Shown here piece after piece: positions 941-31,496 of a DNA stretch of 64,000 nucleotides; position 1 is the stretch's first letter; each line of letters begins with the position of its first letter. Below the pieces are notes generated by a model. That model made no database searches. It saw only the letters and a program-made list of their open reading frames with translations, and had not been told where the DNA came from. A program made the position numbers and the translations under genes. This stretch comes from a virus: IMG/VR virus record IMGVR_UViG_3300038425_000174, one strand, 5' to 3'.

Positions 941-959
941 GCCCCAACCCCGGAGGTGG

Positions 960-2551: not shown

Positions 2552-2560
2552 GGAGGGCCT

Positions 2561-4063
2561 ATGCCCCTAGGAATCAAGGTCACGACCGGTGAGACCGCAG
2601 GTTCAGCCGGAACATCCACCGCCACTGGCAACGCGTTCTTCATCGGTGAAGCCGAATGGGGACCCTACACGCCGCTACTGGTCAAGAGTATGGCGGCGTT
2701 CAAGGAATCTTACGGGGAACGCTCGACCATCAACGGGAAACTGTACGACGCTGTGGAAACGTTCTTCCAGCTTGAAGGCGCCCAGTGCTACGTGGTGCGG
2801 CTGCAGGAAGCGGCAAAAAGCACTGTGAAGGCTCAGCCGACGGGCTATGAACTCTCGAACACCGCGGCCAAAAAAGTGATCAGCGTGGAAGCTCGCTATG
2901 CCGGCACCTACATCAACGAATGGACGCTGGAAGTCGTGAAGAAAGCCGCGGAATCCGCGAACATTATTTTGAAGAACGCGGCCGGGGAAGTCATCGAAGA
3001 AACCGGTTACCTTGCGTCGCCGGAAAAGCTGCCGTGGGGATCGCTGACCGAATTCAACACGAGCTGGCTGACATTCAAGCAGCTCGCAGGATACGCGGCA
3101 GAACCGACGGTTCAGCTCGAAACCTACGCCGCCAAAAAAATGAAATCCTCGCAGGCGGGTACGAATCCGACGATCGCGGAAGCGGACGCTGAAGCGGGGC
3201 CGGCGCTCTTCCCGAAGACACTTGGACCTGGCCAGCTGTGCTACCCGGGTACGTCCGGCGAACCCTCGAAAGAAAAAATCCATAAAGCGATGGGTGAATC
3301 CGCGCTGAAAACCAACCGGGTGGCGCTCTGTGACATCGCAGACTCGGCGACGGCTGCAACCCTCATCACCAACAAGAAAACCTATGCGAACAACATCGCT
3401 GGGTACATGGCCTTCTTCTCATCCTCTGCCATCATCCCGGGTATCACTCTCGGCACGACCCGCACAGTTGCGGCGTCTGCGGTTGCGGCGGGCTTGTGTG
3501 CGCAGGCGGCAAAGTCCGGGAACGACTCCGCGGCACCGGCTGGGGTGCAGTGGTCGGGAACCGGTCAGGGACTCTCCCCGTTTGTGACGGGATTCACCAA
3601 CACGTTCAGCAACGAAAACATGGTGACGCTCGCGGAAAACGGGATCAACCCCTTTGCGGAACGCCAGGGGAAACCGGTGCTGTACGACTTCGTGTCCGCC
3701 CTCCCGCGCTCCACGGACAAGATCTTCTGCCAGTTCTCGGCGTCACGTGAGCGGATGCACCTCGTGTGGGCTGGGGAAGAAATCGCGGAAGGCTACCTGT
3801 TCAAGACCATAGATGGCCGGGGTCAGCTGCTCGCGGCGTTCCAGGGGTCGCTGATGGCGATGCTGAAAACCCAATGGGAAGCCAAAGCGATCTTCGGAAT
3901 TACCGCGCCGGAAGCCGGCATTGTCAACGTCGGCGAACCCGTCAACACCCTCACGACCGAGAGTGAAGGCCAGCTGAACGCGGAAATCCGGGTGCGCCTA
4001 TCCCCCTATGTCGAATCAATGTCGCTCGTCGTCATCTCGGCACCCATCACGGAAAGCATCTAG
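2561..4063 (+). CDS. Contractile tail sheath protein
   Basis: 500 aa. N-terminal FFIGEAEWGP...VKSMAAFKESYG and C-terminal LAENGINPF...AEIRVRLSPYVE are typical sheath motifs. SD GGAGG. Confidence 0.9.
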   Translation: MPLGIKVTTGETAGSAGTSTATGNAFFIGEAEWGPYTPLLVKSMAAFKESYGERSTINGKLYDAVETFFQLEGAQCYVVRLQEAAKSTVKAQPTGYELSNTAAKKVISVEARYAGTYINEWTLEVVKKAAESANIILKNAAGEVIEETGYLASPEKLPWGSLTEFNTSWLTFKQLAGYAAEPTVQLETYAAKKMKSSQAGTNPTIAEADAEAGPALFPKTLGPGQLCYPGTSGEPSKEKIHKAMGESALKTNRVALCDIADSATAATLITNKKTYANNIAGYMAFFSSSAIIPGITLGTTRTVAASAVAAGLCAQAAKSGNDSAAPAGVQWSGTGQGLSPFVTGFTNTFSNENMVTLAENGINPFAERQGKPVLYDFVSALPRSTDKIFCQFSASRERMHLVWAGEEIAEGYLFKTIDGRGQLLAAFQGSLMAMLKTQWEAKAIFGITAPEAGIVNVGEPVNTLTTESEGQLNAEIRVRLSPYVESMSLVVISAPITESI

Positions 4064-16431: not shown

Positions 16432-17022
16432 TTAGTCTTCACTCGGCACCGTGCATGTGACCTCAAGCTGGTACCACGCTTCTTCACCCGGCAGGCCGTA
16501 CGTGCCGGGCAGTTTGGCGAAGCGGGACACTTCCCAGCCCGTCGCCGGTTCGTCCCAGCCTCCCGCTACGTGCTCCGGGACAAGCCCTTCGAATTCCTCG
16601 ACGGGTTTCTCGTACCCTACGTCCGGGGTGATTTTGTAGGCGCTGGTGCCTCCCGACTCGGCGATGTCACCGGAGGGGCAGGACACCGTTTCTTCGATGT
16701 AGACGACGCATTCCTTAGCGCCGCATGGCTGCTTCACGAGGTTACCCTTCACCACGATCGTTCCGACACCCTGCGGCCCCGGCTTTCCTTCGGGTCCCTG
16801 GACGCTGACGCCAGATGGCCCTGTAACCCCTTGAGCGCCGGCAGGCCCCCGAGGGCCAGTTGCCCCCGTCACGGTCTCCGTAACGATGGGCACGGGCCTG
16901 CGGAGCGTTCGTAGCACGCTCGGCTTGATCTGGCTGGTGCTCGTGATGAGGTAGTGATGACTCACCACGGCAGGGACGGCGAGAGAGACAACCACTGCGA
17001 GACCTGCTGCGAGCTTGGGCAT
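16432..17022 (-). CDS. Secreted collagen-like protein (moron)
   Basis: Signal-peptide-like N-terminus; G-x-y repeats GATGPRGPAGAQGVTGPSG and GPEGKPGPQG; opposite strand to the tail operon, with its own promoter and SD. Confidence 0.75.
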   Translation of the reverse strand: MPKLAAGLAVVVSLAVPAVVSHHYLITSTSQIKPSVLRTLRRPVPIVTETVTGATGPRGPAGAQGVTGPSGVSVQGPEGKPGPQGVGTIVVKGNLVKQPCGAKECVVYIEETVSCPSGDIAESGGTSAYKITPDVGYEKPVEEFEGLVPEHVAGGWDEPATGWEVSRFAKLPGTYGLPGEEAWYQLEVTCTVPSED

Positions 17023-17158
17023 GGGACCTCCGGTTCTGGAGTCCGAGCCCTACTCCGTGCGTTTCGTCCTGGCCGTCTCTCTCCAGGACGCTTACGACGA
17101 TCATATCAGGCCCCCGCGCCGTTTGCGCGGCCGGGGGCGTGCCCGGAACCCCTGGGAG
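17023..17158. promoter_or_regulatory. Repeated regulatory cassette, copy A: 87-nt promoter/leader (17023-17109) plus 49-nt GC hairpin element (17110-17158)
   Basis: Near-identical to 30677-30763 and 30859-30907. Minus-strand extended -10 TGaTATGAT at 17100-17108. Confidence 0.8.
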
Positions 17159-17166
17159 GTCCCGAG

Positions 17167-17352
17167 ATGCCAAAGCCTATACCTACGCTCCGGCTCCGTT
17201 GCGAAGCGGTCGCCGACACGCCTAACGGTGTCGTTGCTGCCATCGTGGAAGGTGGAGCGGTTGCGGCAAATAGGCTCTCGACCTTCTTTGTTCCAGCAGG
17301 ACAGCAGTGGGAAGTCAACCAGACTGCAAAGGCGTCAGCCGTTCAGCTATAG
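17167..17352 (+). CDS. Small hypothetical protein (61 aa)
   Basis: GGGAGG SD before ATG at 17167; divergent from the collagen gene. Confidence 0.5.
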   Translation: MPKPIPTLRLRCEAVADTPNGVVAAIVEGGAVAANRLSTFFVPAGQQWEVNQTAKASAVQL

Positions 17353-17373
17353 GGCCGACGAAGGGGAGGGGCA

Positions 17374-17694
17374 ATGACAGAAGGCCAGGTTTGGGACCTC
17401 GTAACCCAGACGCTCGACCGGCTGGAGGGTAAGGTCGACACGGGACTCGCCGGTCTCAATGCCAAGCTCGACACGAAGGCTGATAAGGCCGATCTTTCGC
17501 GTCTGTATGGCCGATTGGAAGGCACGGAACGCCGGGTGGACAAGGTCGAACGCGCGGAGGCCGAGGACGCCCTGGCGGCCGAGGTCACCCACGATCACGA
17601 ACAGGCACGTAGAGAGCGCACCCATAGACGTATGCTGCTCGCCTGTAGCGTGGTCTCGACCGCGGCCTTGGTGATTGCGGTGGTGCATGTCTGA
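17374..17694 (+). CDS. Coiled-coil membrane protein of the lysis region
   Basis: Heptad coiled coil plus one C-terminal TM helix; SD GGAGG. Confidence 0.6.
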   Translation: MTEGQVWDLVTQTLDRLEGKVDTGLAGLNAKLDTKADKADLSRLYGRLEGTERRVDKVERAEAEDALAAEVTHDHEQARRERTHRRMLLACSVVSTAALVIAVVHV

Positions 17695-18268
17695 GGTACC
17701 ACCCGCGCTACGCCCGGTGATCTGGCTGCTGCGCCACTTCAACAGTAACCCGAGATTTCAATACCAATTCAACCTGGTCGGTACCGCAGTGGGCGTCGCG
17801 GTAATGATCGCCATGCCGCTCGTGTACTTTCTCGCGCCGCACGTCTGGGCGTCCAGTTCGATCCTCGCTCTCATCGAGATCACCCTGTATGGCAATGCTA
17901 GCTCGGACTATGTCGGAGTGTCGGACGCTGAGGCTAGTGGCCACTCCGCAGCGCTACGCGCCATTCGCTCCAGCGCCGCACATCACCGTCTCGCCGGACG
18001 TGTCTTCGACGCGCTGACGTCGGACGCACGTACCCAATACCGCCTTCATCTTGTGTTGACGTACGTCTGGATTGTGCAGATGGTGATGGCGCCCTTCATC
18101 TTTGCGCTCGCTTCGAGCTTCTTTGGTGAGTATGACATTCTCTACACACTCCTCGTCAACGGGTATACAAACGTAGCGACCAACTTCTCCGCGCTTCCCG
18201 GCACGCTTGCAGCAGTACGCCTTCAGGAGGTGCGCGAGGGTCGGTCACCGTGGGAGTCAAGAAGATGA
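17687..18268 (+). CDS. Internally duplicated membrane protein (holin-like candidate)
   Basis: Two homologous halves, each with (N/D)xRxQYxxxL followed by two TM helices and a YxNxxx(D/N) motif. Confidence 0.55.
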   Translation: MSEVPPALRPVIWLLRHFNSNPRFQYQFNLVGTAVGVAVMIAMPLVYFLAPHVWASSSILALIEITLYGNASSDYVGVSDAEASGHSAALRAIRSSAAHHRLAGRVFDALTSDARTQYRLHLVLTYVWIVQMVMAPFIFALASSFFGEYDILYTLLVNGYTNVATNFSALPGTLAAVRLQEVREGRSPWESRR

Positions 18269-18870
18269 AGACTTGCAGTAGATGCGGTATCGCCCAGCCC
18301 TTCACTAATTTCTATAGGCATTCCCGAACCCGAGACGGCAGGCAGTCTCACTGTAAGGACTGTGATCGGAAGCGCTATCGCGAAGATCCGGAGCGCCGCG
18401 CGCAGGTCAAAGCGAGTAAACGCCGCCGCCATCTCGAAGATTCGGCAGCGATGCAGGCGCAGTGCCGTCGTTGGGTCGCGGCCAATCCTGAGCGATGGCG
18501 AGAGATCGGACGACTGGGTAAACAAAGACAAAGGGCAGCCGACCCGGAGCGAGCCCGTGAAACGAGTCGGCTCGCGTCTCGTAAGAGGCGTGCGCTCGCG
18601 CCGAGGGGCGCGTGACCCTTGGGAGATACCGTGCCCGCAAGCGCGACCAGTTCATCGAGGATGTAGACCCCAATCTGGTCTACGAGATGCACGGTGGGCG
18701 CTGTGGCAATATGTGGTGAGTTCATCTCTCACGAGGAGTTTCATGTTGATCATGTAATTCCACTCGTGGAGGGTGGCCCACACGGGTATATCAACGTTCA
18801 GCCTGCCCACCCAGCCTGCAATATCTCTAAGGGCGCCCGGCTTCCCAGCGAACTCAGTGTGCAGTCATGA
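18265..18870 (+). pseudogene. Split/frameshifted HNH endonuclease
   Basis: Zn-ribbon ORF 18265-18615. The frame from GTG 18612 reads ...MHGGRCG, then needs a +1 shift near 18708 to give ICGE...HVDHVIPLVEGG...NVQPAHPACNISK up to TGA 18870. Confidence 0.7.
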
Positions 18871-19304
18871 CTCGCGACGACCTCAAGCAGGCGATCTTCG
18901 GCGGCGCTGACGGTCTGACCTCTGCGCTCGGGGCGATCGTGGTGCTCGCTGCTAAGGGCGACTACCAGGCGCTTGTCATCGCATCGGTGGCCTACGCGGT
19001 GGGAGCGGCCTGGAGCATGGGCGGATCTGAGTACCTGTCGGACTTCAGCGGCAGCCTGCGCAGGGCGACCGTGATGGCTCTCGCCACGCTGACGTACTCG
19101 ATCGCGCCCGCGATCCCCTTCTTTGCCCTGAGCGGTCTCGCGGCATGGATCGGCGCGATTGTCATCACCGTGCTCTGCGCGGCGCTGATCGCGGAGGCTC
19201 GTCCCTACGGGGCGCTCAAGAGTTACACACAGACGTTCGGCATCGTCGGTGTTGGAGCTGTGCTGGCGGTCGGGGCGAGTCTCTTGGCCGGCGTACTGAT
19301 CTAG
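18867..19304 (+). CDS. Minimal VIT1/CCC1-family membrane protein
   Basis: IFGGADGLTS and AWSMGGSEYLS match the VIT1 GxxDG and SMxxGEY motifs; lacks the cytoplasmic loop. Confidence 0.75.
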   Translation: MTRDDLKQAIFGGADGLTSALGAIVVLAAKGDYQALVIASVAYAVGAAWSMGGSEYLSDFSGSLRRATVMALATLTYSIAPAIPFFALSGLAAWIGAIVITVLCAALIAEARPYGALKSYTQTFGIVGVGAVLAVGASLLAGVLI

Positions 19305-19313
19305 GAGGAAACA

Positions 19314-20177
19314 GTGAGACGGATGATCCTCGCCGCCTGCGCGGTGGCTATTGCCGGTTGCGGCGCCTCGCCCTCTCGCAGTCCGTCCACCTCGTCGCCC
19401 TGTAACCCAGCGCCCGGGAACGGTGTCATGGGGATCTGTATCCCCCACCGCGTTGGGGGTAGCTTGAACGCCCCGCGCGGGGCACTACTGCCGGACGTCA
19501 GCGAATACCAGGGTTGCCCCAGATGGCAAGAGGGTATCCCTGGCGTCACCTTCCGCGTCTATGAAGCCGGCACGGGACTCCAGGACCGTTCCGCCGCCTG
19601 CAACGCGCGCCGCCTGCGTCAGATAGGGGCGTGGGACGCCGCGTACGCCTTCCTGCGGCCCGGAAGCTGTACGGGGCAGGCAGACCGTACGGTAGCGATC
19701 CTCAGGGCCGTAGGCGGCATCTCTGGGCCTGTCGTGGCCGATGCGGAGGTCCCGCTGCCGGCGGGGTTCGTGGCTTGCTTCGACGCCCGTGTGGCGCGTG
19801 ACATGGGGAATGACGCCCAGGTTGACTACTCCGCTCCGGGGACCTGGCCTGGGGGCTCCCCCACGAGACCTGTCTGGGTTGCGACCTACGGGCCGGCGCC
19901 GGGCTGCGTCGGTGGAGTGTGCTCACACGTCGCTTGGCAGTTCTCGGAAGACTTCAACTGCCACGGACTCGTCGGCGATTGCTCGCTCGACACGGGCATC
20001 ACCGCGATACGACAGCACGTCCTGAATCGAAGGCTGCTCGCCGAGCGGGAACTCCTCCGGGCCGATCTGATTCGCCACCGCTGTCGCGTAGCTCCCTATC
20101 ACGGGCGCGGTCGCTACCACCGAGTCTGTGCTCGCTGGCTGAAACGCGGCCGGGTGATTGACCGCGAGCTGAGATGA
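19314..20177 (+). CDS. GH25 muramidase endolysin with lipoprotein signal peptide
   Basis: PDVSEYQG, ADAE, WVATY and AWQFS GH25 motifs; MRR + hydrophobic stretch + IAGC lipobox; SD AGGAGG. Confidence 0.8.
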   Translation: MRRMILAACAVAIAGCGASPSRSPSTSSPCNPAPGNGVMGICIPHRVGGSLNAPRGALLPDVSEYQGCPRWQEGIPGVTFRVYEAGTGLQDRSAACNARRLRQIGAWDAAYAFLRPGSCTGQADRTVAILRAVGGISGPVVADAEVPLPAGFVACFDARVARDMGNDAQVDYSAPGTWPGGSPTRPVWVATYGPAPGCVGGVCSHVAWQFSEDFNCHGLVGDCSLDTGITAIRQHVLNRRLLAERELLRADLIRHRCRVAPYHGRGRYHRVCARWLKRGRVIDRELR

Positions 20178-20470
20178 ACACAGCCGAACGAGTCATCCAC
20201 GATCTTCAGCAGGCACATATCGCGCACTACCGAGCAAGGGAGAAGCAAGTGAACCTCACGGCCATACAGACCAGCGTCATTAGCCTCGTGGTAGCCGTCG
20301 CCGGCATCGCTGGGGCTCTCGGGTTTTGTGACACGGACCTCGAAAAGCTGATCGTCAGCACCGCGTCAGTGGTAATCCCGCTCGCATTCCAGCTTTATAT
20401 CGAGCTTGAGCGGAAAACCGTCACGCAGGCGAGGATCGCCGGTCTGCCGATCCGGAGCCGCCTGCCGTGA
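20174..20470 (+). CDS. Holin-like protein
   Basis: 98 aa, two TM segments, basic C-terminus; coupled to the endolysin by ATGA. Confidence 0.6.
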   Translation: MNTAERVIHDLQQAHIAHYRAREKQVNLTAIQTSVISLVVAVAGIAGALGFCDTDLEKLIVSTASVVIPLAFQLYIELERKTVTQARIAGLPIRSRLP

Positions 20471-21261
20471 GGCCCCGGATCACCAAGGGCTACGGATGGA
20501 TCGCAGATCTGCCCGATCCGCGTGACCGGAGTTACAACCTCGACGAGACGATCCTCAAGGCCGTGCAACTCCCGGCGAAGTTCTCGCTGCGGGAGAAGAT
20601 GCCGAGGATCTTCAACCAGCTCGCGCTCGGCTCCTGCACTGCCAACGGGATCGTTGCGGTACTGATGGCGGCGGGCATGAAACAGGGCGAGGCGGAACTA
20701 ATGCTCTCCCGGCTGTTCGTCTATTACGGCGAGCGTGTCATCGAGGGAACCGTCAACGAAGACTCGGGCGCCCAGATCCGTGACGGCATCAAGGTCGTGG
20801 CGAGCGAGGGCGCACCACCGGAGTCCGTGTGGCCCTACGACATTGCGGAGTTCGCGGTCAGGCCCCCGGCCGTGGCGTATGCGGACGCGAAGCACCACGA
20901 GGCGATCGTCTACCAGCGGATCAACCCGATCTCCCCCGGCGCCCCGCTGCGCACCGCGCTGTTCAATGGCTATCCGATCGTCAAGGGCTTCGCCGTACCC
21001 GAACGCTTCGAGAGCCCGTCATGGAATCCGGAGACCGAACCGCTGCCCCTGCCGACACCAAGCGAAGGATTCATCGGCGGGCACTGCACCGTGACGGTCG
21101 GCTGGGATTTCTCGCTCACGCGTTTCAAGGTCCCCGTGTTCGAGGAACGGAATAGCTGGGGCACAGGTTGGGGGGAAGACGGTTACTACTGGTCGGACGC
21201 GCGCTGGCTGTGGAACCCGGAATTGAGTTCGGACTTCTGGTGTATCCGTCGCGCGAGCTAA
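20467..21261 (+). CDS. Papain-family (C1A) cysteine peptidase
   Basis: YGWIADLPDPRD, NQLALGSCTA (Gln/Cys), GGHC (His), RNSWGTGWG (Asn). Confidence 0.9.
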   Translation: MRPRITKGYGWIADLPDPRDRSYNLDETILKAVQLPAKFSLREKMPRIFNQLALGSCTANGIVAVLMAAGMKQGEAELMLSRLFVYYGERVIEGTVNEDSGAQIRDGIKVVASEGAPPESVWPYDIAEFAVRPPAVAYADAKHHEAIVYQRINPISPGAPLRTALFNGYPIVKGFAVPERFESPSWNPETEPLPLPTPSEGFIGGHCTVTVGWDFSLTRFKVPVFEERNSWGTGWGEDGYYWSDARWLWNPELSSDFWCIRRAS

Positions 21262-21277
21262 CGGACGGCCGCGCCCT

Positions 21278-21463
21278 GTGGCACTTCTCGAACACGACCC
21301 CTGCGCCTACTGCGGCGCTCCACACGAGCAGGTCGATCACATCGAGCCGGTGGCCCGCGGCGGGATAACCGAATGGGCCAACCTCACGAGTGCCTGTCGC
21401 CCGTGCAATAGGAGCAAGCGCGACATCCCACTGCTTCTCTGGATGCTCCGTAGGGCGTCGTGA
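21278..21463 (+). CDS. Minimal HNH endonuclease
   Basis: CAYCG...VDHIEPVARGG...NLTSACRPCNRSK. Confidence 0.8.
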   Translation: MALLEHDPCAYCGAPHEQVDHIEPVARGGITEWANLTSACRPCNRSKRDIPLLLWMLRRAS

Positions 21464-21562
21464 GTGTCCGGCTAGCTCTGTACCCGCTCTAACGCGTAGA
21501 TCTAGCAGCCGGGCGTCGTAAGCGGGTTTCGCCTTCGCGCCTAAGTTTGAGGATGTGCCCGA

Positions 21563-21716
21563 GAACCCCAAACGAGCAAGGTGCGTCGCCCGCCCACCTA
21601 GCTTTGATCTTGTGGCTACGAACCGAAACGAGCAAGGGGTGTCGGTCGGGGGTCTAGCTTTCGATCCCGTGGAACCCAAACGAACAGAGAGTGTGGGTCG
21701 GGCGTCTAACTTTCCC
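21563..21716 (+). repeat. Three imperfect tandem 52-57 bp repeats, each ending in a TA(G/A)CTT -10-like hexamer
   Basis: Units start at 21563, 21620 and 21672 (GAACCnAAACGA..AAG...GT....GTCG..CTA(G/A)CTTT). The last -10 is 7 nt before an in-frame ATG at 21720. Confidence 0.75.
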
Positions 21717-21719
21717 GGC

Positions 21720-22988
21720 ATGGCGACCAATCCGAGGAGGACCGTGACCAGGCCATCCAACGACGTGATTGCGGAGGCTTACGCGAACGCCGGCTCCATA
21801 CGGCAGACGGCCGACGCCCTGGGCTGGGGCGAGACGACGCTCCGGGGCTGGGCCAAGAAGGACCCAGAGCTGGCGGCTCTGTTCTACGGGGAGCGGGACC
21901 AGTCTCTCCAGTTCACCCTCGCGTCGAAGGACGCCGAGCTGCGGGAGCTACGCCGCGATCACAAGAAGCTCGTCGAGCTGCTCGGGAAGCGGCAGGAGTG
22001 GGTGAGCGAGATGGTCGAGGCGGCGCGCGTGCCGGTGAAGACGCCGAGCTACCGCAAGCGCGATTCGCGCGTGAAGAACCTGGCGAAGCGCCCCGAGCGT
22101 TCCGTCGTCCTGCCAATCTTCGACCTTCAGTATGGACAGCACGTCAGCCACGAGGATGTCGCTCTCGGGCGCGGCGCTTTCGACGAGGGGATATTCGACG
22201 CACGCCTCGCGGCTTACGTCGAGAAGGTGTCCGCCCTCCTCGCGGATCGGGCGGCGACCACGCAGTTCACGGAGCTGCATATCGTGCTTGGCGGGGATCT
22301 CGTGGAGGGAGACCAGATCTTTGCCGGCCAGGCGTGGCAGCTGGAAAAGCACCCGATCCGACAGGTACTTGACCTCCGCGTGAAGCTGGGCTCGGCTCTG
22401 GGGTATCTGATCGAGTTCGCGCACAAGGACCTCGACGTCCAGCGGGTGGCCCTGTACGGAGTCCCCGGTAACCACGGCAAGGTCGGCGGCAAGCGTGCCG
22501 GCGCCATCCCTGCCGACTACTCGTGGGACTGGCTGGTCACCGAGTTGATCTTCGACGCGCTTCGCGAGCACGCGATAGACCTCCGGGTGAACGAGGCGGC
22601 CGGGGCGCTCCTGTTCGAGACGCTCGGGCACAAGTTCCTTGTGATCCACGGCGACGAGATCAAGGGCCAGATGAGCATTCCCTTCTACGGTCTCGTGCGC
22701 TTTGACGGGCGCGCGATGCGCCTGGCGGAAACGGTCTACGACTATTGTCTGCTCGGGCATCATCATCAACCTGCCTCCATTCCGAATGGTAGTGGTGGTG
22801 AGTTTTTCGTATCCGGCGACTGGGTCGGCGGGAACAACCTTTCCAAGCACATCGTTGCTGCTTCGAGGCCGCAGCAAAGAGTCCTCCTCATCAGCGCGAA
22901 GCACGGTATCACGGAGGACAGTCGGATCTACTTCGACGACCGCCGAGATCGCAAACCGCCCGTAGTCCACAACGTGAGGACGGCATGA
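21720..22988 (+). CDS. HTH-coiled coil-calcineurin-like metallophosphoesterase
   Basis: DLQYG, GGDLVEG, GNHG, HGD and GHHH motifs; N-terminal HTH SIRQTADALGWGETTLRGW. Start is 21720 (leaderless) or GTG 21744 (SD). Confidence 0.85.
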   Translation: MATNPRRTVTRPSNDVIAEAYANAGSIRQTADALGWGETTLRGWAKKDPELAALFYGERDQSLQFTLASKDAELRELRRDHKKLVELLGKRQEWVSEMVEAARVPVKTPSYRKRDSRVKNLAKRPERSVVLPIFDLQYGQHVSHEDVALGRGAFDEGIFDARLAAYVEKVSALLADRAATTQFTELHIVLGGDLVEGDQIFAGQAWQLEKHPIRQVLDLRVKLGSALGYLIEFAHKDLDVQRVALYGVPGNHGKVGGKRAGAIPADYSWDWLVTELIFDALREHAIDLRVNEAAGALLFETLGHKFLVIHGDEIKGQMSIPFYGLVRFDGRAMRLAETVYDYCLLGHHHQPASIPNGSGGEFFVSGDWVGGNNLSKHIVAASRPQQRVLLISAKHGITEDSRIYFDDRRDRKPPVVHNVRTA

Positions 22989-23272
22989 GGCCGGTACGTC
23001 ACAAGGGCAGCGACGTGATCTACCGCGGGCCGGCTCCGGGTATAGGGGATCTCTGGTGCCAGCGCATTGCGCCCGGCCAGATCCGGGTCGTCTACGAGCT
23101 AGACGACAAAGACCGTCGCGTGATCGCTGAGGGCGGACGGATCGAGCTGGCGATGTTCTCCGAGCCAATACCGCCGATCAGCATGATCGTTCTGCCCGAG
23201 TCGATGTGTCGCCCGGTGGCCGAGCACGGCTGGAAGGATCAGCGGTACGACGATCCCTTGGAGACAGCATGA
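22985..23272 (+). CDS. Hypothetical protein
   Basis: ATGA-coupled in the operon. Confidence 0.55.
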   Translation: MRPVRHKGSDVIYRGPAPGIGDLWCQRIAPGQIRVVYELDDKDRRVIAEGGRIELAMFSEPIPPISMIVLPESMCRPVAEHGWKDQRYDDPLETA

Positions 23273-23435
23273 ACTTTCATGGGCCGCAGCTCCGCACGGG
23301 TGATCACCGTCGTCGCGGGCTCGTGGTAAACCGGCAGCCGGGGGCGACTCCTACCCGCCCCATTCACGTGGCGGCTGCGGCGACGACCCGTAACGGGCGC
23401 CCATGCACCTCCCTGCGGGACACGAGGGCCGCCTG

Positions 23436-23762
23436 ATGGGTCGACCGACTGTGATCCCGCCCGGTACCAAGATCGGTTTCACTAGGCCCAGTTCTCATGC
23501 GTACAAGGATTACGGCGGCCGTGGCATCACGGTGTGCGAGAGGTGGACCGACTTTAGAGCCTTCCTGGAAGACGTAGGCGAATGCCCTGGTGACGGGTAC
23601 ACCCTGGACCGTATAGACAACGACGGCAACTACGAGCCCGGGAATGTGCGCTCGGAGGAGCAGGGGTGGAACAAGCGCAGTGTAGAGCTAGCTAAGCGCG
23701 TTCGGGACGCTGTCCAGTTTCTCCAAAAGCACGCCCCTGAAGAGTTGGCGGCGAAGCTATGA
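23436..23762 (+). CDS. Degenerate HNH homing-endonuclease-like protein
   Basis: [15 protein letters not shown]...[17 protein letters not shown]; the usual N-terminal part is missing. Confidence 0.7.
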
Positions 23763-24007
23763 CACATCCTCTACCCAGCCCTGTCTGCCGATCCGGCTAT
23801 CCAGAGTCCCAGTTGCGCGAAATCCTGAAGGACCAGTTCGATTCCTTCGGGAGGTGGATGGATGGACAGACCGTCACATTGTGCGAGGGGCGCTACTGGG
23901 ATCACGTGTTTCAGAAGTACGTGCCGGACGGCTGCGGCCCGCACGGACCCGTCGTCTATCGCTGGGATCTCGAACGGTTCCTTCATGGCCTTCCGGTGGT
24001 GGACTGA
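23759..24007 (+). CDS. Hypothetical protein
   Basis: Overlap-coupled ORF chain. Confidence 0.55.
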
Positions 24008-24237
24008 TGTCCGCCGAGGGGTACCGGGAGTTCGCTGAGGAGAGTCTGGAACTCTCGGAGCTGGCCATCCAGCTCGCTATCGACGTGGATGAAGACTTCC
24101 GTGATCCCGGGAAGCTTCCCTGTCCGGACTGCGGGGCGCGGGTGGGTGACTACTGCGTCACCTCGACAGGTGAGCGTACCGGCGACCACAGCATACGGCG
24201 ACGGCTAGCAAAGTACAAGCCCGTGGAGGAACGATGA
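24007..24237 (+). CDS. Small zinc-finger protein
   Basis: CPDCGARVGDYC...H; TGATG coupling. Confidence 0.55.
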   Translation: MSAEGYREFAEESLELSELAIQLAIDVDEDFRDPGKLPCPDCGARVGDYCVTSTGERTGDHSIRRRLAKYKPVEER

Positions 24238-24539
24238 AGCTCGAAATCCGCGATAACCTGCCTACCGAGATCGTCGTCCGATTGTCCCGACGGAATCTCC
24301 AGTCACTTCTACACAAGCTCGACTGGGAGGGCTCTCACAGGAGCATCCAGCGGCAGGAGCGCTCGCACGGACCGATCCTCACAGTCATCGCCGAGGATGA
24401 CCCCGAACACTACGTGGACAGGACTCCCGGACCGATGCACCCGATCACCGAGGCGGCGATCACCAAGTCGGACATGCTCGACGCGATGGAAGCGCTCATC
24501 CACGATCGCGGCTTCGAGGACTACGTTCACCATGACTGA
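24234..24539 (+). CDS. Hypothetical protein
   Basis: ATGA coupling; SD GGAGG. Confidence 0.55.
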   Translation: MKLEIRDNLPTEIVVRLSRRNLQSLLHKLDWEGSHRSIQRQERSHGPILTVIAEDDPEHYVDRTPGPMHPITEAAITKSDMLDAMEALIHDRGFEDYVHHD

Positions 24540-25005
24540 GACCCATGAACAGCTCGTGACGATCCGGTTCATTGAGAGGTGGCCTGCCCACGAACCCCGG
24601 GAGAATGATCCGAACTATCATTTCTTCCGCGAGGCCAAAGCGCGTCTCAAGAAGGCGGGTCTGCTCAAGTGCGTGGTGGACAGCGACTACCACGAGGGAC
24701 CGGTGGAGCTGCACCATAGCGTCGTCGAGTTCGCCCACATCAACGACGTGTCGGTAGATAGGCTGAATGCCGCGTACGGGCTGCACCTGACGGACGAGCA
24801 GTTCCAGGAATTCGTCGAGGGGGTGCCCGCAGTCAACGAGCACGGCGAGCAGGTCAACTCGCTGGAGCCTCTTTGCCGGCTTCACCACAGAGGAACCGAG
24901 GGGATTCACAGCCTGCCGACACCGGAGTGGGCTGTGCTGCGCGTCGCCAAGCCGGGCCGGCAGATAGCGATGGCCCGGTCCAACACTGGGGTCCCGGTGG
25001 TCTGA
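24532..25005 (+). CDS. HNH-like hypothetical protein
   Basis: VELHH...NSLEPLCRLHHRG pattern resembles a His-Me finger. Confidence 0.5.
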   Translation: MTETHEQLVTIRFIERWPAHEPRENDPNYHFFREAKARLKKAGLLKCVVDSDYHEGPVELHHSVVEFAHINDVSVDRLNAAYGLHLTDEQFQEFVEGVPAVNEHGEQVNSLEPLCRLHHRGTEGIHSLPTPEWAVLRVAKPGRQIAMARSNTGVPVV

Positions 25006-25514
25006 TGTCCATCAAGCACTGCACCCGCTGTCAGACGACGAAACCCCGCTCCGAGTTCGGGCGGGACCGGAGCCGTAGGGACGGTCTCTATCCCTGGTGC
25101 AAGCCCTGTAAGAGGACTAACGCGAAAATCTGTAGGGAACGCTCACCTGAGGAGGCTCGCACCAGAACCGAGCGGTATCAGGCCAAACGCGATGCGAACA
25201 TCGAGGCGCGCACTCGTTACCTCCAAAGAGCTGCCGCGTACACCCTCCAGAAACGCTACGGGATCACGACGGCCGACTACAATGTGATCTGGGACGGACA
25301 GGGTGGCATCTGCGCGATCTGCGGTAGACCGCCTAAAGCCGGCCGCTGGGGCTCCCTACAAGTAGACCACGACCACGACACCGGGGAGATCCGCGGACTG
25401 CTCTGCTTTTCCTGCAACGCCGGCCTCGGCCAGCTCGGTGATTCTCCCGAGAGCCTAGAACGCGCGCTTTGCTACGTCGCCTCCCACACCCCGATTGGCA
25501 CGGTCACCGCATGA
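25005..25514 (+). CDS. Recombination endonuclease VII-like protein
   Basis: CAICG...VDHDHDTGEIRGLLCFSCNAGLG. Confidence 0.9.
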   Translation: MSIKHCTRCQTTKPRSEFGRDRSRRDGLYPWCKPCKRTNAKICRERSPEEARTRTERYQAKRDANIEARTRYLQRAAAYTLQKRYGITTADYNVIWDGQGGICAICGRPPKAGRWGSLQVDHDHDTGEIRGLLCFSCNAGLGQLGDSPESLERALCYVASHTPIGTVTA

Positions 25515-26682
25515 CCCCCCTTCCAGAGGCACGCTGGTCGAAGGAAAACCCTCCCGGGTCCATCCTCCGGGAGTCTCTCTGCGAGCGGCTCCAGGCCCTC
25601 ATCGAACGGGTCGCCGAGGAAGATCGGAAGGTCAGGGAAGCGAGCGTGAAGTCACAATGAGGATCGGCCCACTCGGACTGGACGTGACTCGCCCCGGCGT
25701 TGGCGGCTGGGCCAACCTGGAGGTACTCCGACGCCGCCGATACCTCGCGATGCTCCGGCTCCCCTACGGCCGTGTCTTCACCTGTTCATGGACGGACAAA
25801 CGATGAACTACACGACCGAAACTTACACGACCAAGGTCTTCCGAAGATTCGACGTCCCGCCCTGGGTCTGTGGTCTCTACCGTAAGCCTCGATTTGCCCG
25901 TCTGCGGTGGTTCCTGAGGCGCGTGTGGCCAATTCAGGCCGATCCTATAGGTGGGCTGGAGCTGAGCGTACTCAGAGGCTTAGAACGGGATTATCAGCTC
26001 CGGCTCGACAGGCGGATCTCGGGAATCTACGCGACGCCATCTCGCCGGGAAGCCTACGACGCAGCCTACGGCGACGGTGCTTGCGAGCGGGACCGTGCCA
26101 TTTGCGCGTCTGCCGGCGTCAGGACCGAGCACCTCGACTACGTATTTGGACCGATCCGCGAACGCCAAGATGGCGAGCGTGTCGACCCCGAGACGATGGG
26201 ACACGGATGATGACCCTGTCCGACCCCCTCAATACGGCAGGGAATCGAGGCCGGCTGGCCCGTCCCCCGCGAGTGATGTTCGACCGGGCGCTGGCGCGGC
26301 TGATGGGCCTTCGCGTTACCGAAGATGACGACGGCGTGATCGGCGTACACGTTCCGGGTTGGGTTGCTGCCCGGCCGCGCCTCATAGACGCCGTTGCTGA
26401 GGGCGTCAAGCGCGCCCTCCGGGGGAACGACCGATGACGACGGAGATCCGCCTTGTTGTGACAGGTTACTGTCCGCCGGACCCTCCGATACCACCGCCGA
26501 TCGAGACATACTGCCGCAGGCAGCCGCGGGGGCCGTGTGAGCACGAGGGTATGTGGACGTCCGGTGCTCGTGCCGGTGTGGCGATCTGCTTCGACTGTGG
26601 CGGCGAATGGGCTCCCCTCGAAACCGACTGGGAACGCCGTGCTCGCGAGATCGCGCTGCGGTTACCTCTGGAGGGACGATGA
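25511..26682 (+). CDS. Run of five small coupled hypothetical ORFs (25511-25660, 25657-25806, 25803-26210, 26207-26437, 26434-26682)
   Basis: Consecutive ATGA overlaps; no recognisable motifs except a Cys cluster in the last ORF. Confidence 0.5.
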
Positions 26683-27230
26683 CCTGCATCGCCGGCATTG
26701 AGTACGATGGCAAGGTCTGGATTGGCGGGGACTCTGCCGGGTCGGATGGCTACTACCTGACCATCCGCGCCGACGAGAAGGTGTGGACGAACAACGATTT
26801 CGCGTTTGGCTTCACCAGCTCCTTTCGCATGGGGCAACTCCTGCGATACAAGCTGAAGCTCCCGCCTGAGCGGCACGAGGTTGATAGTGACCCAGTCGCC
26901 GAGCTGGAGTTCATGTCCACCGTGTTCATCGACGAGGTGCGCGAGACGCTCAAAGACGGCGGCTTCGCCAAGCTAGAGAATGGCGTCGAGCGGGGTGGCT
27001 CGTTTCTGGTGGGCTGGCGCGGCCGGCTCTACATGGTCCACGAGGACTTCCAAGTCGGTCGTGCCCTACAGGGTTTCTACACCATCGGCTCAGGCGGCGC
27101 GCACGCCGAAGGAGCGCTCTACGCGCTTCGGGGCGTAGGGCAACCGGAGGAGAGACTCCGGGTCGCCCTTGAGGCGGCAGAGGCCCTTGTGGGCTCCGTG
27201 CAGGGTCCCTTCAAGGTGGTGAGTGTATGA
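26679..27230 (+). CDS. HslV/proteasome-beta-like Ntn hydrolase (Thr protease)
   Basis: Starts M-T-C-I-A-G; IGGDSAG, EKVW, IGSGGAHAEGAL. Confidence 0.75.
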   Translation: MTCIAGIEYDGKVWIGGDSAGSDGYYLTIRADEKVWTNNDFAFGFTSSFRMGQLLRYKLKLPPERHEVDSDPVAELEFMSTVFIDEVRETLKDGGFAKLENGVERGGSFLVGWRGRLYMVHEDFQVGRALQGFYTIGSGGAHAEGALYALRGVGQPEERLRVALEAAEALVGSVQGPFKVVSV

Positions 27231-27400
27231 CCGTCTACGCCGTCTGGGAGCATGAATTCGAGTACGACGAGCTGATCGGGCTGTTTCACAGGAAGAGTGA
27301 TGCTGAGGCTAGGGCTGCTGAAAATCCGGTGGGCAATCTCCCCGGTCAGTGGCCTGACAATCGCGGAAGCTGGACTGTCGAGGAGCACGAGGTCCTATGA
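27227..27400 (+). CDS. Small hypothetical protein (57 aa, MTVYAVWEHE...)
   Basis: ATGA overlaps at both ends. Confidence 0.55.
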   Translation: MTVYAVWEHEFEYDELIGLFHRKSDAEARAAENPVGNLPGQWPDNRGSWTVEEHEVL

Positions 27401-27843
27401 GGTCCCCGGAGAAAGAAACCGTGAGCACCGAAGAGCTGGTCCTAGAGTGGCTGACATGTGCGTCGCAGGAGATCATGTCCGGGCAGATGCTGCGACACGT
27501 CGAGCCCAGGGTGTGGCTCGACCCGCTGACCGAAGACCTCACTGCGCAGCTATTCACCTACGTACTCGCCGAGAAGATTCTGACCGAGGACCGTAAGGAG
27601 TGGTTCGAAGGTCACGCCACCCTGGAGAAGTCGCTGACGTTCCGCGAGGCGCTGCGCCTGGTCTTCCATCGGAACCGCACGGTCACCCAGGTGACCGACG
27701 TGCAGGGCTACGTGGACATCCACGTCGCGCACTACGAGACGTTTCCCGAGAGCCGGATCGACTACCCCAAGAACCTCGGAAGGGCCGTGCCACTGACGAA
27801 ACTGCACGCCGGCCGATCACACCTCCACCAGGGGGACGCATGA
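27397..27843 (+). CDS. Hypothetical protein
   Basis: ATGA-coupled. Confidence 0.5.
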   Translation: MRSPEKETVSTEELVLEWLTCASQEIMSGQMLRHVEPRVWLDPLTEDLTAQLFTYVLAEKILTEDRKEWFEGHATLEKSLTFREALRLVFHRNRTVTQVTDVQGYVDIHVAHYETFPESRIDYPKNLGRAVPLTKLHAGRSHLHQGDA

Positions 27844-27851
27844 CGTCCGAG

Positions 27852-29273
27852 TCACGCAGCCGCCTGGAGAGGGTCGGCCTGCAAATCCTCCACGAGCGGG
27901 GGCAGGGGCTCACTGGCACCGTGTTCGGTGAGGTTGACACGCTCAGCGACGGGCCGGCGTCCCTTCCGGCGCCGCACGGCGATCGTCTCAAAGCCCGCGT
28001 CGAGCAGTCGGCGTAGCTGGTCTGAAGTGTGCTCACCGGCTGTGACTAGCTGCGGGTCGATCTGCCGTAGTGGCGTCGCCTGCTTCGCGAGCGCCTGACA
28101 TTCGGCCTGGTCTACTTCGATCTGATCCTTGCGCGCCTGCAACGCCGGGTGGTAGCCGTCGCCGAGGATACGGCGAGCAGTGGCGTCCGCCGCGAAGGTT
28201 GCCAGCTCGTCCTCTGAGTCTTCACGTTTGCGCTCAGCCGCCGCTAGGGCGCTGGAGAGATCCTCGGTTGGCGCCGCGTAGGGCGTCTTCCAGTAGTGGC
28301 GCAGGACCGTCAGGCAGTAACGCTCCAGCCGGTTGGCGAGGATCGTGGGCGGCGAGGGGCAGCCGCTGTTGCGGCATCCATAGGTCCGTTCGCCGTTTGT
28401 GTTCGAGCCGACCAGCGGGCCGCCGCAGTGGGCGCAGGAAGCGATGCCGCTCAGCGGGAACTCGCGGCTGCGGCGCTTTTTCCGGGTCGGTGCCGGTTGG
28501 GCAGCTTCCCACTCGCGCCGGCTGACGATCGGCTCATGGGCATCCTTTTGGCACAGCTCGCCAAAGGTCACTTCGCCGAGGTAGGTCCGGCTCGCGACCA
28601 TCCGCCGGACCCGAGTCGTCGTCCATTTGCGGTCCGGGGAGGCCTGGCGCAGGTACTCAGCTGCCACGCTGAGATCCAGGGCTGCCCGGCGGAACGCCTC
28701 GCGGACGATCGATGCCCGGTCGGGATCGGATTTGAGCCGGCCGTCGCTGCCGCGTACGTAGCCGAAGGTCACTGCGCCGATCTGCTTGCCTTCCCCGATG
28801 GCCTTGACCTGGGCGGCGCGGGTCCGTTCCTCCGTGGAGCGTTTCTGGTACTCGGAGACGACCGCCATCATCGTCCCGTTCATCCACTGGGCAGCGCTAG
28901 CGTCGCTGACGGCACCAAAGTCCAGCGTCAGGATGTTATCCACGCGCCTGCCGACTTCTTCCTTGATCCGTACGCCGCGGAAGAGCCGGTCGAAGTAGCC
29001 GGCCACGATCATGTCGGCCTCGCCGCGCTCGACGGCTTCTACGGCCTCGCGAAGCCCCTGGCGCTTCTCCAGCGGCGCGTCCCCTTTCACGTCGATTTCC
29101 TCGGTGCAGCGCAGCAGGGTATAGCCGTGGAGCTGGCAGGCGGCCTCCATGCGCTCGCGCTGCTCGTCGGGGGATTTGAAGTGCTCGTCCTCGCGCCCGC
29201 CGCGCTGGGAGACTCGGACGATGCCGATGGCTCGTTTCTGGCGCTGGGCCTGGTCTTCGTTCTTGCGCTCCAC
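27852..29273 (-). CDS. Large serine recombinase (integrase)
   Basis: IVRVS catalytic Ser, DRLFR, recombinase domain YLGEV, Zn ribbon CAHCGG...YGC..C, coiled coil. SD AAGGAG before GTG 29273 (alternative TTG 29300). Confidence 0.95.
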   Translation of the reverse strand: MERKNEDQAQRQKRAIGIVRVSQRGGREDEHFKSPDEQRERMEAACQLHGYTLLRCTEEIDVKGDAPLEKRQGLREAVEAVERGEADMIVAGYFDRLFRGVRIKEEVGRRVDNILTLDFGAVSDASAAQWMNGTMMAVVSEYQKRSTEERTRAAQVKAIGEGKQIGAVTFGYVRGSDGRLKSDPDRASIVREAFRRAALDLSVAAEYLRQASPDRKWTTTRVRRMVASRTYLGEVTFGELCQKDAHEPIVSRREWEAAQPAPTRKKRRSREFPLSGIASCAHCGGPLVGSNTNGERTYGCRNSGCPSPPTILANRLERYCLTVLRHYWKTPYAAPTEDLSSALAAAERKREDSEDELATFAADATARRILGDGYHPALQARKDQIEVDQAECQALAKQATPLRQIDPQLVTAGEHTSDQLRRLLDAGFETIAVRRRKGRRPVAERVNLTEHGASEPLPPLVEDLQADPLQAAA

Positions 29274-29394
29274 GGTGATCTCCTTAGGTATCGGCTCCAA
29301 AGCTGTTCTGCTTTAGGGAGCGTTGGTGGACAGCAGCGTCCGTTGATGCACATAAGCCTACCACGGTCCGCCGACGTCCGCAAGCTCCATCGGC

Positions 29395-29598
29395 CCTGTC
29401 CGGAATCAGGGTGGCGCCTTGCCTTAGCCGCGCTGCCCGTCCGTCGATACCTGCCCTAGGCGTCTCCACGAACGTTGAGCGGGGACCACCCTAATCCCGT
29501 CAGACTATCACGCTGCCAGTAAACGGGAAGAGGCCCCCTTGCGCAGAGAGCCCCTTTCCCGCTTTGGAAGTCAGACCGGTTTTCATGAACCGCCTGAC
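29395..29598 (-). ncRNA. Candidate ~200-nt structured ncRNA upstream of the integrase
   Basis: TAGCCT -10 (29605-29610) 6 nt before a 5' hairpin; 20-bp hairpin at 29521-29564; 13-bp helix GGGAUUAGGGUGG/CCACCCUGAUUCC; no credible ORF. Confidence 0.5.
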
Positions 29599-29633
29599 GC
29601 CCAGAGGCTAGCACAGGGCTCCGGTCGGCGAGA

Positions 29634-29666
29634 AGGAAAGGGGAGCCCGACGGATCGGGCTCCCCC
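29634..29666 (-). terminator. Intrinsic terminator
   Basis: 11-bp GGGGAGCCCGA/TCGGGCTCCCC stem followed by TTTCCTT on the minus strand. Confidence 0.7.
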
Positions 29667-29772
29667 TGCTCGGACGGGCCGCCCGGGATTCGCAGGCCGG
29701 ACGGTGAGGGGCAGTCTACCAGGGTCCCTCACCTCCCGCACTGCCCCTCCGTGCGTTGAGGGAGGCAGCAAA

Positions 29773-30675
29773 CTAGTACGGAATCACCGTGTGTCCGTGT
29801 GGGGTCCGAGAGGAATACTCAGTGATCCGGGTGAACATGGGGCCGCCCGTGGTGGGATCAGTCCCAGGGCGAAACGCGACGATCCGCACTCGGTATGGCT
29901 TTGATCCAATCATACCGGGATGCTCCCCGCGATCGTAGCCCGTGGCCGTCGCTCGGCCTGTGGTCCAGGTAGTCCAGTGCAGGTCAAAAAGGTTGAGGGT
30001 TTCGGCGTTGGCCGCCCCGGGCCGATCAATAAAGCATTGGCGGGGCTTGATGGGAGAACTATAGTCCGGTGGCGTTAGACAGACAAGTGCAGTGGGACGC
30101 ACGGGCCACCCTCCGAGTCCGAAGGTTTCTTCGGAGCTGGAGAGGGATACGCACCGCCAGTTTCGATTGACAAACTCCGGGTCTGTGAACGTGAACGCGA
30201 AGCGCTGGCCGTTGAAGGAGCCAACGGTGGTCACTTCGCCTGCGTAGCCTTCGAGCGTAACCCAACCAGCAATGCTACCGCCTTCGCTCGGACCACCTTC
30301 AGGTCCTGGGTAGTGAAGTTCGACCCGCTGACCGTATTGGTTGACGCCGTATTTCGGCCTGGCACGGAAGCCGCCGTCGAGCTGGTAAGTACCACAGCTA
30401 GGGCCAATGGCAAAGTCGTCCGCCGTCTCTTCCCCCCAGTAGCTAGGGTCCCACACTTCATCTTCAATGGTCAGGCTGCCAGCGCTCGCGTCATAGCGCA
30501 CGAGGACTTCGTGCTCGTACTCGTTCTGCTGGTCGGCCGGCGGTCCAGGTTCGCCGATGCTGGGCGGGCTCTTTGGCTCGGTGAACACGATGTGCCCGCT
30601 GTGGACGGTGGCGCTGGCTACCGCAGGCGTCATCAGCGCGGCGCCTACGGCGAGAGCTGCAACGAGCCTGGACGT
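29773..30675 (-). CDS. Secreted hypothetical protein
   Basis: Signal peptide RLVAALAVGAALMTPAVASA. The SD-aligned start is ACG at 30675 (alternative GTG 30735). Confidence 0.7.
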   Translation of the reverse strand, partial: TSRLVAALAVGAALMTPAVASATVHSGHIVFTEPKSPPSIGEPGPPADQQNEYEHEVLVRYDASAGSLTIEDEVWDPSYWGEETADDFAIGPSCGTYQLDGGFRARPKYGVNQYGQRVELHYPGPEGGPSEGGSIAGWVTLEGYAGEVTTVGSFNGQRFAFTFTDPEFVNRNWRCVSLSSSEETFGLGGWPVRPTALVCLTPPDYSSPIKPRQCFIDRPGAANAETLNLFDLHWTTWTTGRATATGYDRGEHPGMIGSKPYRVRIVAFRPGTDPTTGGPMFTRITEYSSRTPHGHTVIPY

Positions 30676-30676
30676 T

Positions 30677-30907
30677 GGGACCTCCTGCGTTCTGGAGCCC
30701 GAGCCCTCTCCAGTATTTCGTCCTGGCCGTCTCACTCCAGGACGCTTACAACGATCATATCAGAATGGCGGAGATCTCAGACATCCCGATGTAGGATATC
30801 AGATAGCCCGAATCAGGACGTTGAACATCCCTTCCGCCGCGGCGTAGCGCGCCACTGTGCCCCCGCGCCGTTTGCGCGGCCGGGGGCACGCCCGGAACCC
30901 CTGGGAG
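30677..30907. promoter_or_regulatory. Repeated regulatory cassette, copy B (leader 30677-30763, ~95-nt insert, hairpin element 30859-30907)
   Basis: Direct repeat of 17023-17158 with an internal insertion. Confidence 0.8.
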
Positions 30908-30981: not shown

Positions 30982-31155
30982 TCACCACCGCCCCTCGCCT
31001 CCCGCCCTGTCGTAGTCCGTCCTGCTCAGCGGCACCCGGTTGAAGAGTATCGCGCTCATGTACTCGCGCCACGTGATTGTCGGCGGGGTTGCGAGGCGCT
31101 GCTCTAGGCTCATCCGGCCGGTTCCGCCGGGGGAGATTGTAGTCTGGTCTTGCAT
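30982..31155 (-). CDS. Small hypothetical protein (57 aa, MQDQ...)
   Basis: Directly downstream of the repeated hairpin/GGAAGGA element. Confidence 0.5.
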   Translation of the reverse strand: MQDQTTISPGGTGRMSLEQRLATPPTITWREYMSAILFNRVPLSRTDYDRAGGEGRW

Positions 31156-31164
31156 GGGAGGTCT

Positions 31165-31496
31165 GTCCTTCCGTGCCATGCCCCCGGTCGTTGCAAGCGG
31201 CGCGGGGGCGCTTTTTGTGGGTGTGTCCGGCTGTTATCGACGTATTCAGGGCCTTCCTTCAGTCCTTGGGTCGGTTCTGGCCAGATGGTTCCGGCGGTGG
31301 GGCGCCCTCCTGGCTATCGGCGAGTGTCCGGGACATCATCAGAGAGACCAGGGAGAGCAGCAGCACCGTTGTCTTTGTTTCGCTCGGGGTCATCTCCGGC
31401 CTGCTGTAGGGTTCGCGCTGCATGGGAGTACCGAGTCCTTCCGTGCCATGCCCCCGGTCGTGTCAGCGGCGCGGGGGCGCCTTTTGTAGGTTGCGT
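31165..31496. repeat. Two direct repeats (31165-31218, 31435-31496) of a GC hairpin related to 17110-17138 and 30859-30887
   Basis: 27 bp identical (GTCCTTCCGTGCCATGCCCCCGGTCGT), then GCGGCGCGGGGGCGC and a T-run. Confidence 0.85.
31259..31423 (-). CDS. Small hypothetical protein (54 aa, MQRE...)
   Basis: Same upstream element as 30982-31155. Confidence 0.45.
   Translation of the reverse strand: MQREPYSRPEMTPSETKTTVLLLSLVSLMMSRTLADSQEGAPPPEPSGQNRPKD

Follow-up and report, generated by a model that had tools for sequence, protein, structure and literature searches.

A probable composite control cassette occurs twice in a temperate soil phage, ahead of two genes for predicted exported proteins

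Leaders that sequester the Shine-Dalgarno (SD) sequence, RNA thermometers such as ROSE and fourU, and the expression platforms of riboswitches are known systems for occluding a ribosome-binding site. The promoter-early stem-loop (PeSL), a composite terminator/promoter motif of T4-like phages (PMC2839356, PMC4122927), is repeated in those genomes at the borders of variable open reading frames (ORFs), where it serves as a point of exchange (PMC4122927). Morons are defined by a promoter and a terminator of their own (PMC3594210), and 5'-terminal stem-loops are given as messenger RNA (mRNA) stabilizers in work listed among the references of PMC3997798 (Emory 1992; Bouvet and Belasco 1992; Hambraeus 2002). 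Here we describe a cassette of approximately 136 nucleotides (nt), composed of a GC hairpin, a promoter-like box, a two-hairpin leader and a ribosome-binding site, which occurs twice in IMG/VR record IMGVR_UViG_3300038425_000174. The 64,000-nt stretch analysed, hereafter the window, is a temperate phage with a myovirus-like contractile-tail gene set, from peat or soil metagenomes.

The reading that we favour, with confidence somewhat better than even, is that recombination within a temperate phage duplicated a single composite control cassette, which now heads two moron units of one gene each, both for exported proteins. The leaders, each 87 nt long, lie on the minus strand at 17023-17109 (copy A, ahead of gene A) and 30677-30763 (copy B, ahead of gene B). 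The parts of the two copies are the following.

17110-17158, no strand assigned: block 1 of copy A, made up of the GC hairpin (17110-17138) and 20 nt more; directly upstream of the -10-like box when read on the minus strand
17108-17100, minus strand: extended -10-like box TGATATGAT of copy A, with the transcription start predicted near 17093-17091
17090-17065, minus strand: hairpin 1 of copy A, an 8-base-pair (bp) stem CGUCCUGG/CCAGGACG with a 10-nt loop, approximately 2-4 nt from the predicted 5' end
17056-17023, minus strand: hairpin 2, spacer and SD of copy A, with stem GGAGU/ACUCC, loop AGGGCUCGG and SD GGAGG at 17031-17027
17023-17031 (minus strand) and 17155-17163 (plus strand): 9-bp inverted repeat GGAGGTCCC, the second copy preceding the plus-strand ORF 17167-17352
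17167-17352, plus strand: divergent ORF of 61 codons that follows block 1 and the second GGAGGTCCC and is a called gene in independent assemblies
30859-30907, no strand assigned: block 1 of copy B; homology stops after CTGGGAG, and on the plus strand just a 7-codon remnant follows
30764-30858, minus strand: copy-B insert of 95 nt, folding as a long, imperfect palindrome that includes a second TGATAT box (TGATATCCT)
30762-30754, minus strand: extended -10-like box TGATATGAT of copy B, the same sequence as in copy A, with the transcription start predicted near 30748-30746
30744-30719, minus strand: hairpin 1 of copy B, 8-bp stem, 10-nt loop
30713-30692, minus strand: hairpin 2 of copy B, CUGGAG/CUCCAG, with the SD at 30685-30681

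Aligned by hand, the two leaders are identical in 77 of 89 columns (8 substitutions and 4 gap columns), and over their initial 48 nt, which comprise the -10-like box, hairpin 1 and GAAA, identity reaches 96%. The loop pattern of the leader gave two matches against 0.00 expected, far beyond chance. None of the 12 differing columns touches a part that looks functional. They comprise positions separating the -10 box from hairpin 1, positions of loop 1 and of the linker, an inner pair of hairpin 2 (changed on each side) and positions of the spacer that precedes the SD, and they spare the -10 box, the stems of hairpin 1, loop 2, the CUCC tract and the SD. Block 1, 49 nt long and identical at 47 of 49 positions, abuts the leader in copy A, and in copy B the 95-nt insert intervenes between them. 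The palindrome of this insert has arms GGCGGA...UCCGCC centred on the second TGATAT box, and neither the window nor the fetched loci yielded a further copy of it. Independent assemblies from JGI, Logan and ENA, at least ten in number and from different samples, contain copy A or copy B at 100% identity; the repeat is therefore no assembly artefact, and the same uniformity leaves no natural variation to serve as test material. Some contigs stop inside copy B, at approximately 30785-30863, as expected of assemblers at repeats.

A preliminary description of this DNA had claimed the near-identity of the two leaders, the extended -10 sequence, the insert of approximately 95 nt and the 9-bp inverted repeat of copy A, all of which were recovered at the positions listed above. 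It had taken the repeated unit to be 87 nt long; the repeat is real, and the unit is longer, including the 49-nt GC-hairpin block. Hairpin 1 is present in both copies with a stem one bp longer than had been given. The GGAG/CUCC pairing proposed for hairpin 2 exists as well, with different pairs in the two copies, 5 bp in copy A and 6 bp in a shifted register in copy B.

The order of these parts on the minus strand suggests how the cassette might work. The GC-rich hairpin would insulate the unit from upstream transcription, and the extended -10 box would act as a promoter with no need of a -35 element, such -35-less extended -10 promoters being common in Actinomycetota. Hairpin 1, proximal to the predicted 5' end, would protect the mRNA from 5'-end-dependent decay, and the GGAG/CUCC/GGAGG region would partly hide the ribosome-binding site, setting the level of translation without switching it. 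Both units could in this way be expressed from the prophage. A decamer containing the -10-like box, GATATGATCG, is found in the window at 17107-17098 and 30761-30752, and also at L131:9563-9572, in an unrelated IMG/VR phage contig, where it stands 19 nt upstream of a GC-hairpin leader, in promoter position. A leader peptide was judged unlikely, as the sole ATG sits within the -10 box.

Hairpin 1 can equally be written as a palindrome, CGTCCTGG/CCAGGACG with a 10-nt loop in both copies, and the site CGTCCTGG-N10-CCAGGACG might then be the operator of a dimeric host or phage factor that co-represses both genes. Its perfect 8-bp inverted repeat with a 10-bp spacer, located at approximately +3 to +28 in both copies with unchanged arms, would suit such a role, as would the further long palindrome held by the copy-B insert. 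However, the pattern CCTGG-N8-12-CCAGG matches these two sites only within the window, immunity region included, no regulator gene is adjacent, and a DNA palindrome is indistinguishable from an RNA hairpin on sequence grounds alone; we hold an operator to be decidedly improbable.

The genes that follow the two copies differ in product and surroundings.

16432-17022, minus strand: gene A, encoding a 196-amino-acid secreted or anchored collagen-like protein of the widespread HYLITSTSQIKPSVL family
29773-30675, minus strand: gene B, encoding a secreted all-beta protein of unknown function with a predicted signal peptide
29629-29667, minus strand: terminator after gene B, a 13-bp GC stem followed by a U-rich tract

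In the gene A protein, a hydrophobic N-terminal segment is accompanied by the motif HYLITSTSQIKPSVL and by collagen-like repeats. The gene stands alone, in antisense orientation, with the last tail gene on one side and the lysis block on the other, and a locus that is syntenic through the tail genes (L047) has neither gene A nor the leader at that place. Gene B is laid out as an independent unit, with a promoter-like box, the gene and a strong terminator (29638-29667) in succession and the integrase gene next. It has approximately 20 homologs, and the cassette is absent from the closest of them: without the leader, the P0004 gene starts 3 nt past the upstream gene, and the L040 gene overlaps the gene upstream of it. 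No Pfam or PHROG match was found for the gene B protein, and fold comparison with PDB and AFDB clusters gave nothing meaningful; its AlphaFold model is all-beta, with a mean predicted local distance difference test score (pLDDT) of 69. In the gene A family, represented by 80 metagenome loci (L051-L130), a basic N-terminus and hydrophobic segment are followed by collagen-like G-x-y repeats and variable C-terminal domains; the motif [ST][SN]QIKPSVL is invariant, and the family, large in soil metagenomes, is without a dedicated Pfam model.

The preliminary description had called the two downstream genes unrelated, which is true of their sequences, but their homologs are neighbours elsewhere. In L049, a contig of 1.15 Mb from a metagenome-assembled genome (MAG), homologs of genes A and B are adjacent (633-4056) beside a tyrosine integrase, the gene A homolog carrying the motif HYLI[NT]STSQIKPSVL. 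The two genes seem to travel together, and their adjacency suggests that the secreted products work as a pair which different temperate elements carry.

Several observations weigh against the reading that we favour. A consensus promoter scan made no call at either -10-like box, because neither has a -35 element. The GC content at both cassette sites, 0.63-0.64, equals that of the surroundings, and gene A is without a terminator of its own. At gene B, no ATG, GTG or TTG follows the copy-B SD; directly behind this strong SD stands an ACG (30675-30673), which aligns with the initiator Met of P0004, the closest homolog (60% identity, MLKLTAVLAV vs TSRLVAALAV), so that the copied SD of copy B is left without a canonical start codon. 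The ACG is identical in all assemblies. Upstream, the gene B frame is open to a GTG at 30735, within the hairpin-1 loop, and gene callers start the gene at the ATG at 30633, thereby removing the signal peptide. Gene A starts with a normal ATG and has an in-frame TAG in loop 2. The ACG would be either a near-cognate start or the sign of a crippled gene, and copy B may be decaying or poorly translated. Judged by these start sites, genes A and B cannot be translated in an equivalent way, whatever the role of the leader.

The ACG would also fit a repeat that is a neutral scar of illegitimate or homologous recombination, with at least copy B non-functional. Consistent with such a scar, the 95-nt insert parts block 1 from the promoter in copy B, block 1 is truncated there on its plus-strand side, and the cassette was found in no other genome searched. 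Yet the -10 box, hairpin 1, loop 2, CUCC and SD are intact in both copies, the gene B frame and signal peptide are intact and conserved relative to the homologs, and at least ten assemblies, made from different samples, agree in one fixed sequence. We hold a neutral scar to be unlikely.

The composite cassette that we favour holds a leader which the preliminary description had termed riboswitch-like, with a CUCC tract able to pair either with an upstream GGAG or with the SD. Both pairings are possible; of the two, the one with the SD is the predicted preference in both copies. Hairpin 1 forms in the predicted folds except in 81-82-nt fragments of copy B, in which the minimum-energy fold contains an alternative long-range pairing. 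The fold z-scores are -2.2 and -1.7, and opening the ribosome-binding site is predicted to cost 14.3 kcal/mol for gene A and 9.6 kcal/mol for gene B, compared with a mean of 9.6 kcal/mol (standard deviation 3.6) over 50 genes of the phage. As modelled, folding and SD occlusion are ordinary for this GC-rich phage.

A true translational riboregulator, responding to a ligand, temperature or a protein through the choice of CUCC between upstream GGAG tracts and the SD, would account for the alternative pairings in both copies and for the predicted dominance of the SD-blocked state. Hairpin 2 is kept despite the 12 differing columns, copy B having lost one inner pair (both sides) and gained two outer ones; this retention through different pairs is suggestive, with two sequences as its basis. 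The hairpin-1 stems, loop 2, CUCC and SD are all unchanged, and a neighbouring leader family in the same phages, described below, has a covariation-supported SD/anti-SD helix. Against this, that all 16 bases of the hairpin-1 stem are unchanged is not significant with two recent copies, for which approximately 1.8 changes would be expected at approximately 0.12 differences per nt. The z-scores are unremarkable, the opening costs lie within what the phage shows elsewhere, copy B has no canonical start codon, and the leader, being two short hairpins, offers no conserved core of the size of a binding pocket. An aptamer conserved across genomes, with covarying stems and invariant contacts, as is generic for riboswitches, was not found in the searches given next. 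A true riboregulator is accordingly rated as very improbable.

Searches for relatives of the 87-nt leader gave the same picture. At gathering thresholds, Rfam 15 had no match anywhere in the window, so that the comparison with described families put forward in the preliminary description yielded none; at E-value thresholds, Rfam returned chance sub-threshold matches, the best of them to the Fluoride aptamer (16.9 bits vs a threshold of 34). No match to the leader was obtained by blastn and megablast in 50,697 GenBank phage records, nor any leader homolog in IMG/VR with a stem-independent loop pattern and a promoter pattern. The hairpin-1 pattern matched 39 times in 185,579 GTDB species genomes, in each case by chance, in coding DNA of unrelated phyla. 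The loci searched were the 80 metagenomic loci of the gene A family and those of gene B relatives: blastn-short and nhmmer over 266 kb of them found no leader homolog, and a covariance model of the leader (R1), run over 337 kb of loci and five whole IMG/VR records, gave two weak matches, both in coding regions. With no leader homologs in these searches there is no covariation to examine, the strongest form of the outcome that the preliminary description had itself set as a refutation. What stands of its portable cis-regulatory RNA is one module copied before two unrelated secreted-protein genes; the riboswitch nature is unsupported.

Two further candidates for the leader were rejected. A partial resemblance upstream of the L049 homolog had prompted the idea of an ancestral 5' untranslated region of the collagen-like family, but 74 upstream regions proved unrelated to each other and to the leader. 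CsrA-type control through GGA loops was set aside because the host is probably one of the Actinomycetota, which are not known to have CsrA.

Block 1, read on the opposite strand, is by its match to the family model a diverged member of a conserved family of GC-hairpin leaders with an SD/anti-SD helix. The layout of the family is an A-rich tract, a GC hairpin (GCCCCCG..CGGGGGC), CAUGGCAC, the SD GGAGG, a short loop and CUCC(C)AUG. Instances were located as follows.

17098-17154, plus strand: block 1 of copy A, 31.7 bits, E 1.5e-6
30859-30887, plus strand: block 1 of copy B, 29.3 bits, hairpin only
31153-31221, minus strand: module copy 1 of the window, ending at the ATG of a 57-codon ORF
31421-31490, minus strand: module copy 2 of the window, ending at the ATG of a 54-codon ORF
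L049, 1868-1934 and 4475-4544, minus strand: two instances
L082:1278-1345, L131:9577-9650 and L132:1923-1989: one instance each
L144:745-812 (minus strand), L130:261-326 and L050:5937-6003: one instance each
L160:1501-1571 and L161:1501-1572: one instance each

A covariance model (R2) built from seven copies finds 14 instances. Among the contigs that carry them are L049, L082 and, from IMG/VR, L131, L132 and L144; these last three have no proteins in common with the window at 1e-8. The L050 instance lies directly upstream of a gene B homolog, and a related phage record (G001) holds two family instances. In the model-fitted alignment, which leans towards the model and on which the covariation figures therefore depend, 97% of cells pair and 9 of 14 pairs are changed on both sides, a result reached in 0 of 500 shuffles; in slid controls on the same alignment, the paired share falls to 40-64%. 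On these figures, both helices of the module have support from covariation. The second helix of the family, in which GGAG of the SD pairs with CUCC just before AUG, covaries to GAAG/CUUC in L050. A TANNNT hexamer stands 13-19 nt upstream of the hairpin in seven external members, which fits a promoter-proximal leader, not a terminator, on that strand; on the opposite strand the A-rich tract becomes a U-rich tail, so that the hairpin may also terminate antisense transcripts. The ORFs downstream of the instances are unrelated to one another. The module had no match in Rfam, and the 87-nt leader itself had none to the R2 model. These features make the GC-hairpin leader a candidate new promoter-proximal cis-regulatory motif, which may double as a terminator for the other strand.

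Within the cassette, the family module faces away from genes A and B and in copy A precedes the 61-codon plus-strand ORF, so that the duplicated unit is the whole divergent control region, not the leader alone. A broader proposal places both halves of the cassette in a toolkit of portable structured promoter-leader modules swapped by soil phages of Actinomycetota type: the GC-hairpin module would be a widespread, covariation-supported and undescribed member, and the 87-nt leader a private, recent member and a true translational switch, in which one CUCC tract has three GGAG tracts as competing partners. To this proposal as a whole we give little credence. The GC-hairpin family, recurring with a -10-like box at fixed distance before unrelated genes in unrelated soil phage contigs, is the more useful product of the analysis; if confirmed, it would add a motif to the known cis-regulatory RNAs and help to mark accessory-gene units of uncultured actinophages.

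The remainder of the window is consistent with the phage assignment, and its genes include a GH25 endolysin and the following.

2561-4063: tail sheath, with distant Gordonia and Arthrobacter phage matches
13628-15106: baseplate J
27852-29300, minus strand: serine integrase

The host is probably a member of the Actinomycetota, a hint being that some of the homologs are MAG proteins with Solirubrobacterales names. Shortly past the integrase stop, at approximately 27767-27840, several independent contigs end; these ends may mark the attachment site.

Compared with SD-sequestering leaders, the cassette shares a CUCC anti-SD tract whose partner can be the SD or an upstream GGAG; it differs in having no conserved aptamer, no family and no Rfam 15 match, and in a predicted occlusion that is ordinary for its genome. 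The leaders of ompA, papA and aprE, cited as 5' stabilizers in the reference list of PMC3997798, are alike in a stable hairpin a few nt from the 5' end and a strong SD, whereas the 5' end here is a predicted one. As in morons, single accessory genes with exported products are inserted between core modules (after the tail genes and beside the integrase), each with its own promoter-like element and gene B also with a terminator, and the extra gene is absent at the same position in relatives (L047 for gene A, with gene B homologs in operons that have no cassette). Unlike morons, the two genes share the base composition of their neighbours, and gene A has no terminator.

The layout closest to that of the cassette is found in the PeSLs. 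In both, a short stem-loop and a promoter form a composite that is repeated in one genome, borders accessory ORFs and marks joints of unrelated sequence: in copy A the hairpin at 17110-17138 stands immediately before the -10 box TGATATGAT, and the two copies border genes A and B. A stem-loop adjoining a promoter-like element, repeated at the borders of variable ORFs, is thus what the window contains. PeSLs, however, occur in many copies in lytic T4-like phages of Gram-negative hosts and carry early sigma-70 promoters, whereas the present phage is temperate, GC-rich and from soil, and has two copies, to which a structured leader of 75 nt and an SD are attached. The resemblance is one of layout only, and sequence similarity was neither found nor expected. 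On the reading that we favour, the locus would be a clean and ordinary example of a temperate phage re-using one control cassette for the expression signals of two accessory genes, and would add a GC-rich soil phage to the T4-like phages in which repeated composite terminator/promoter cassettes are known.

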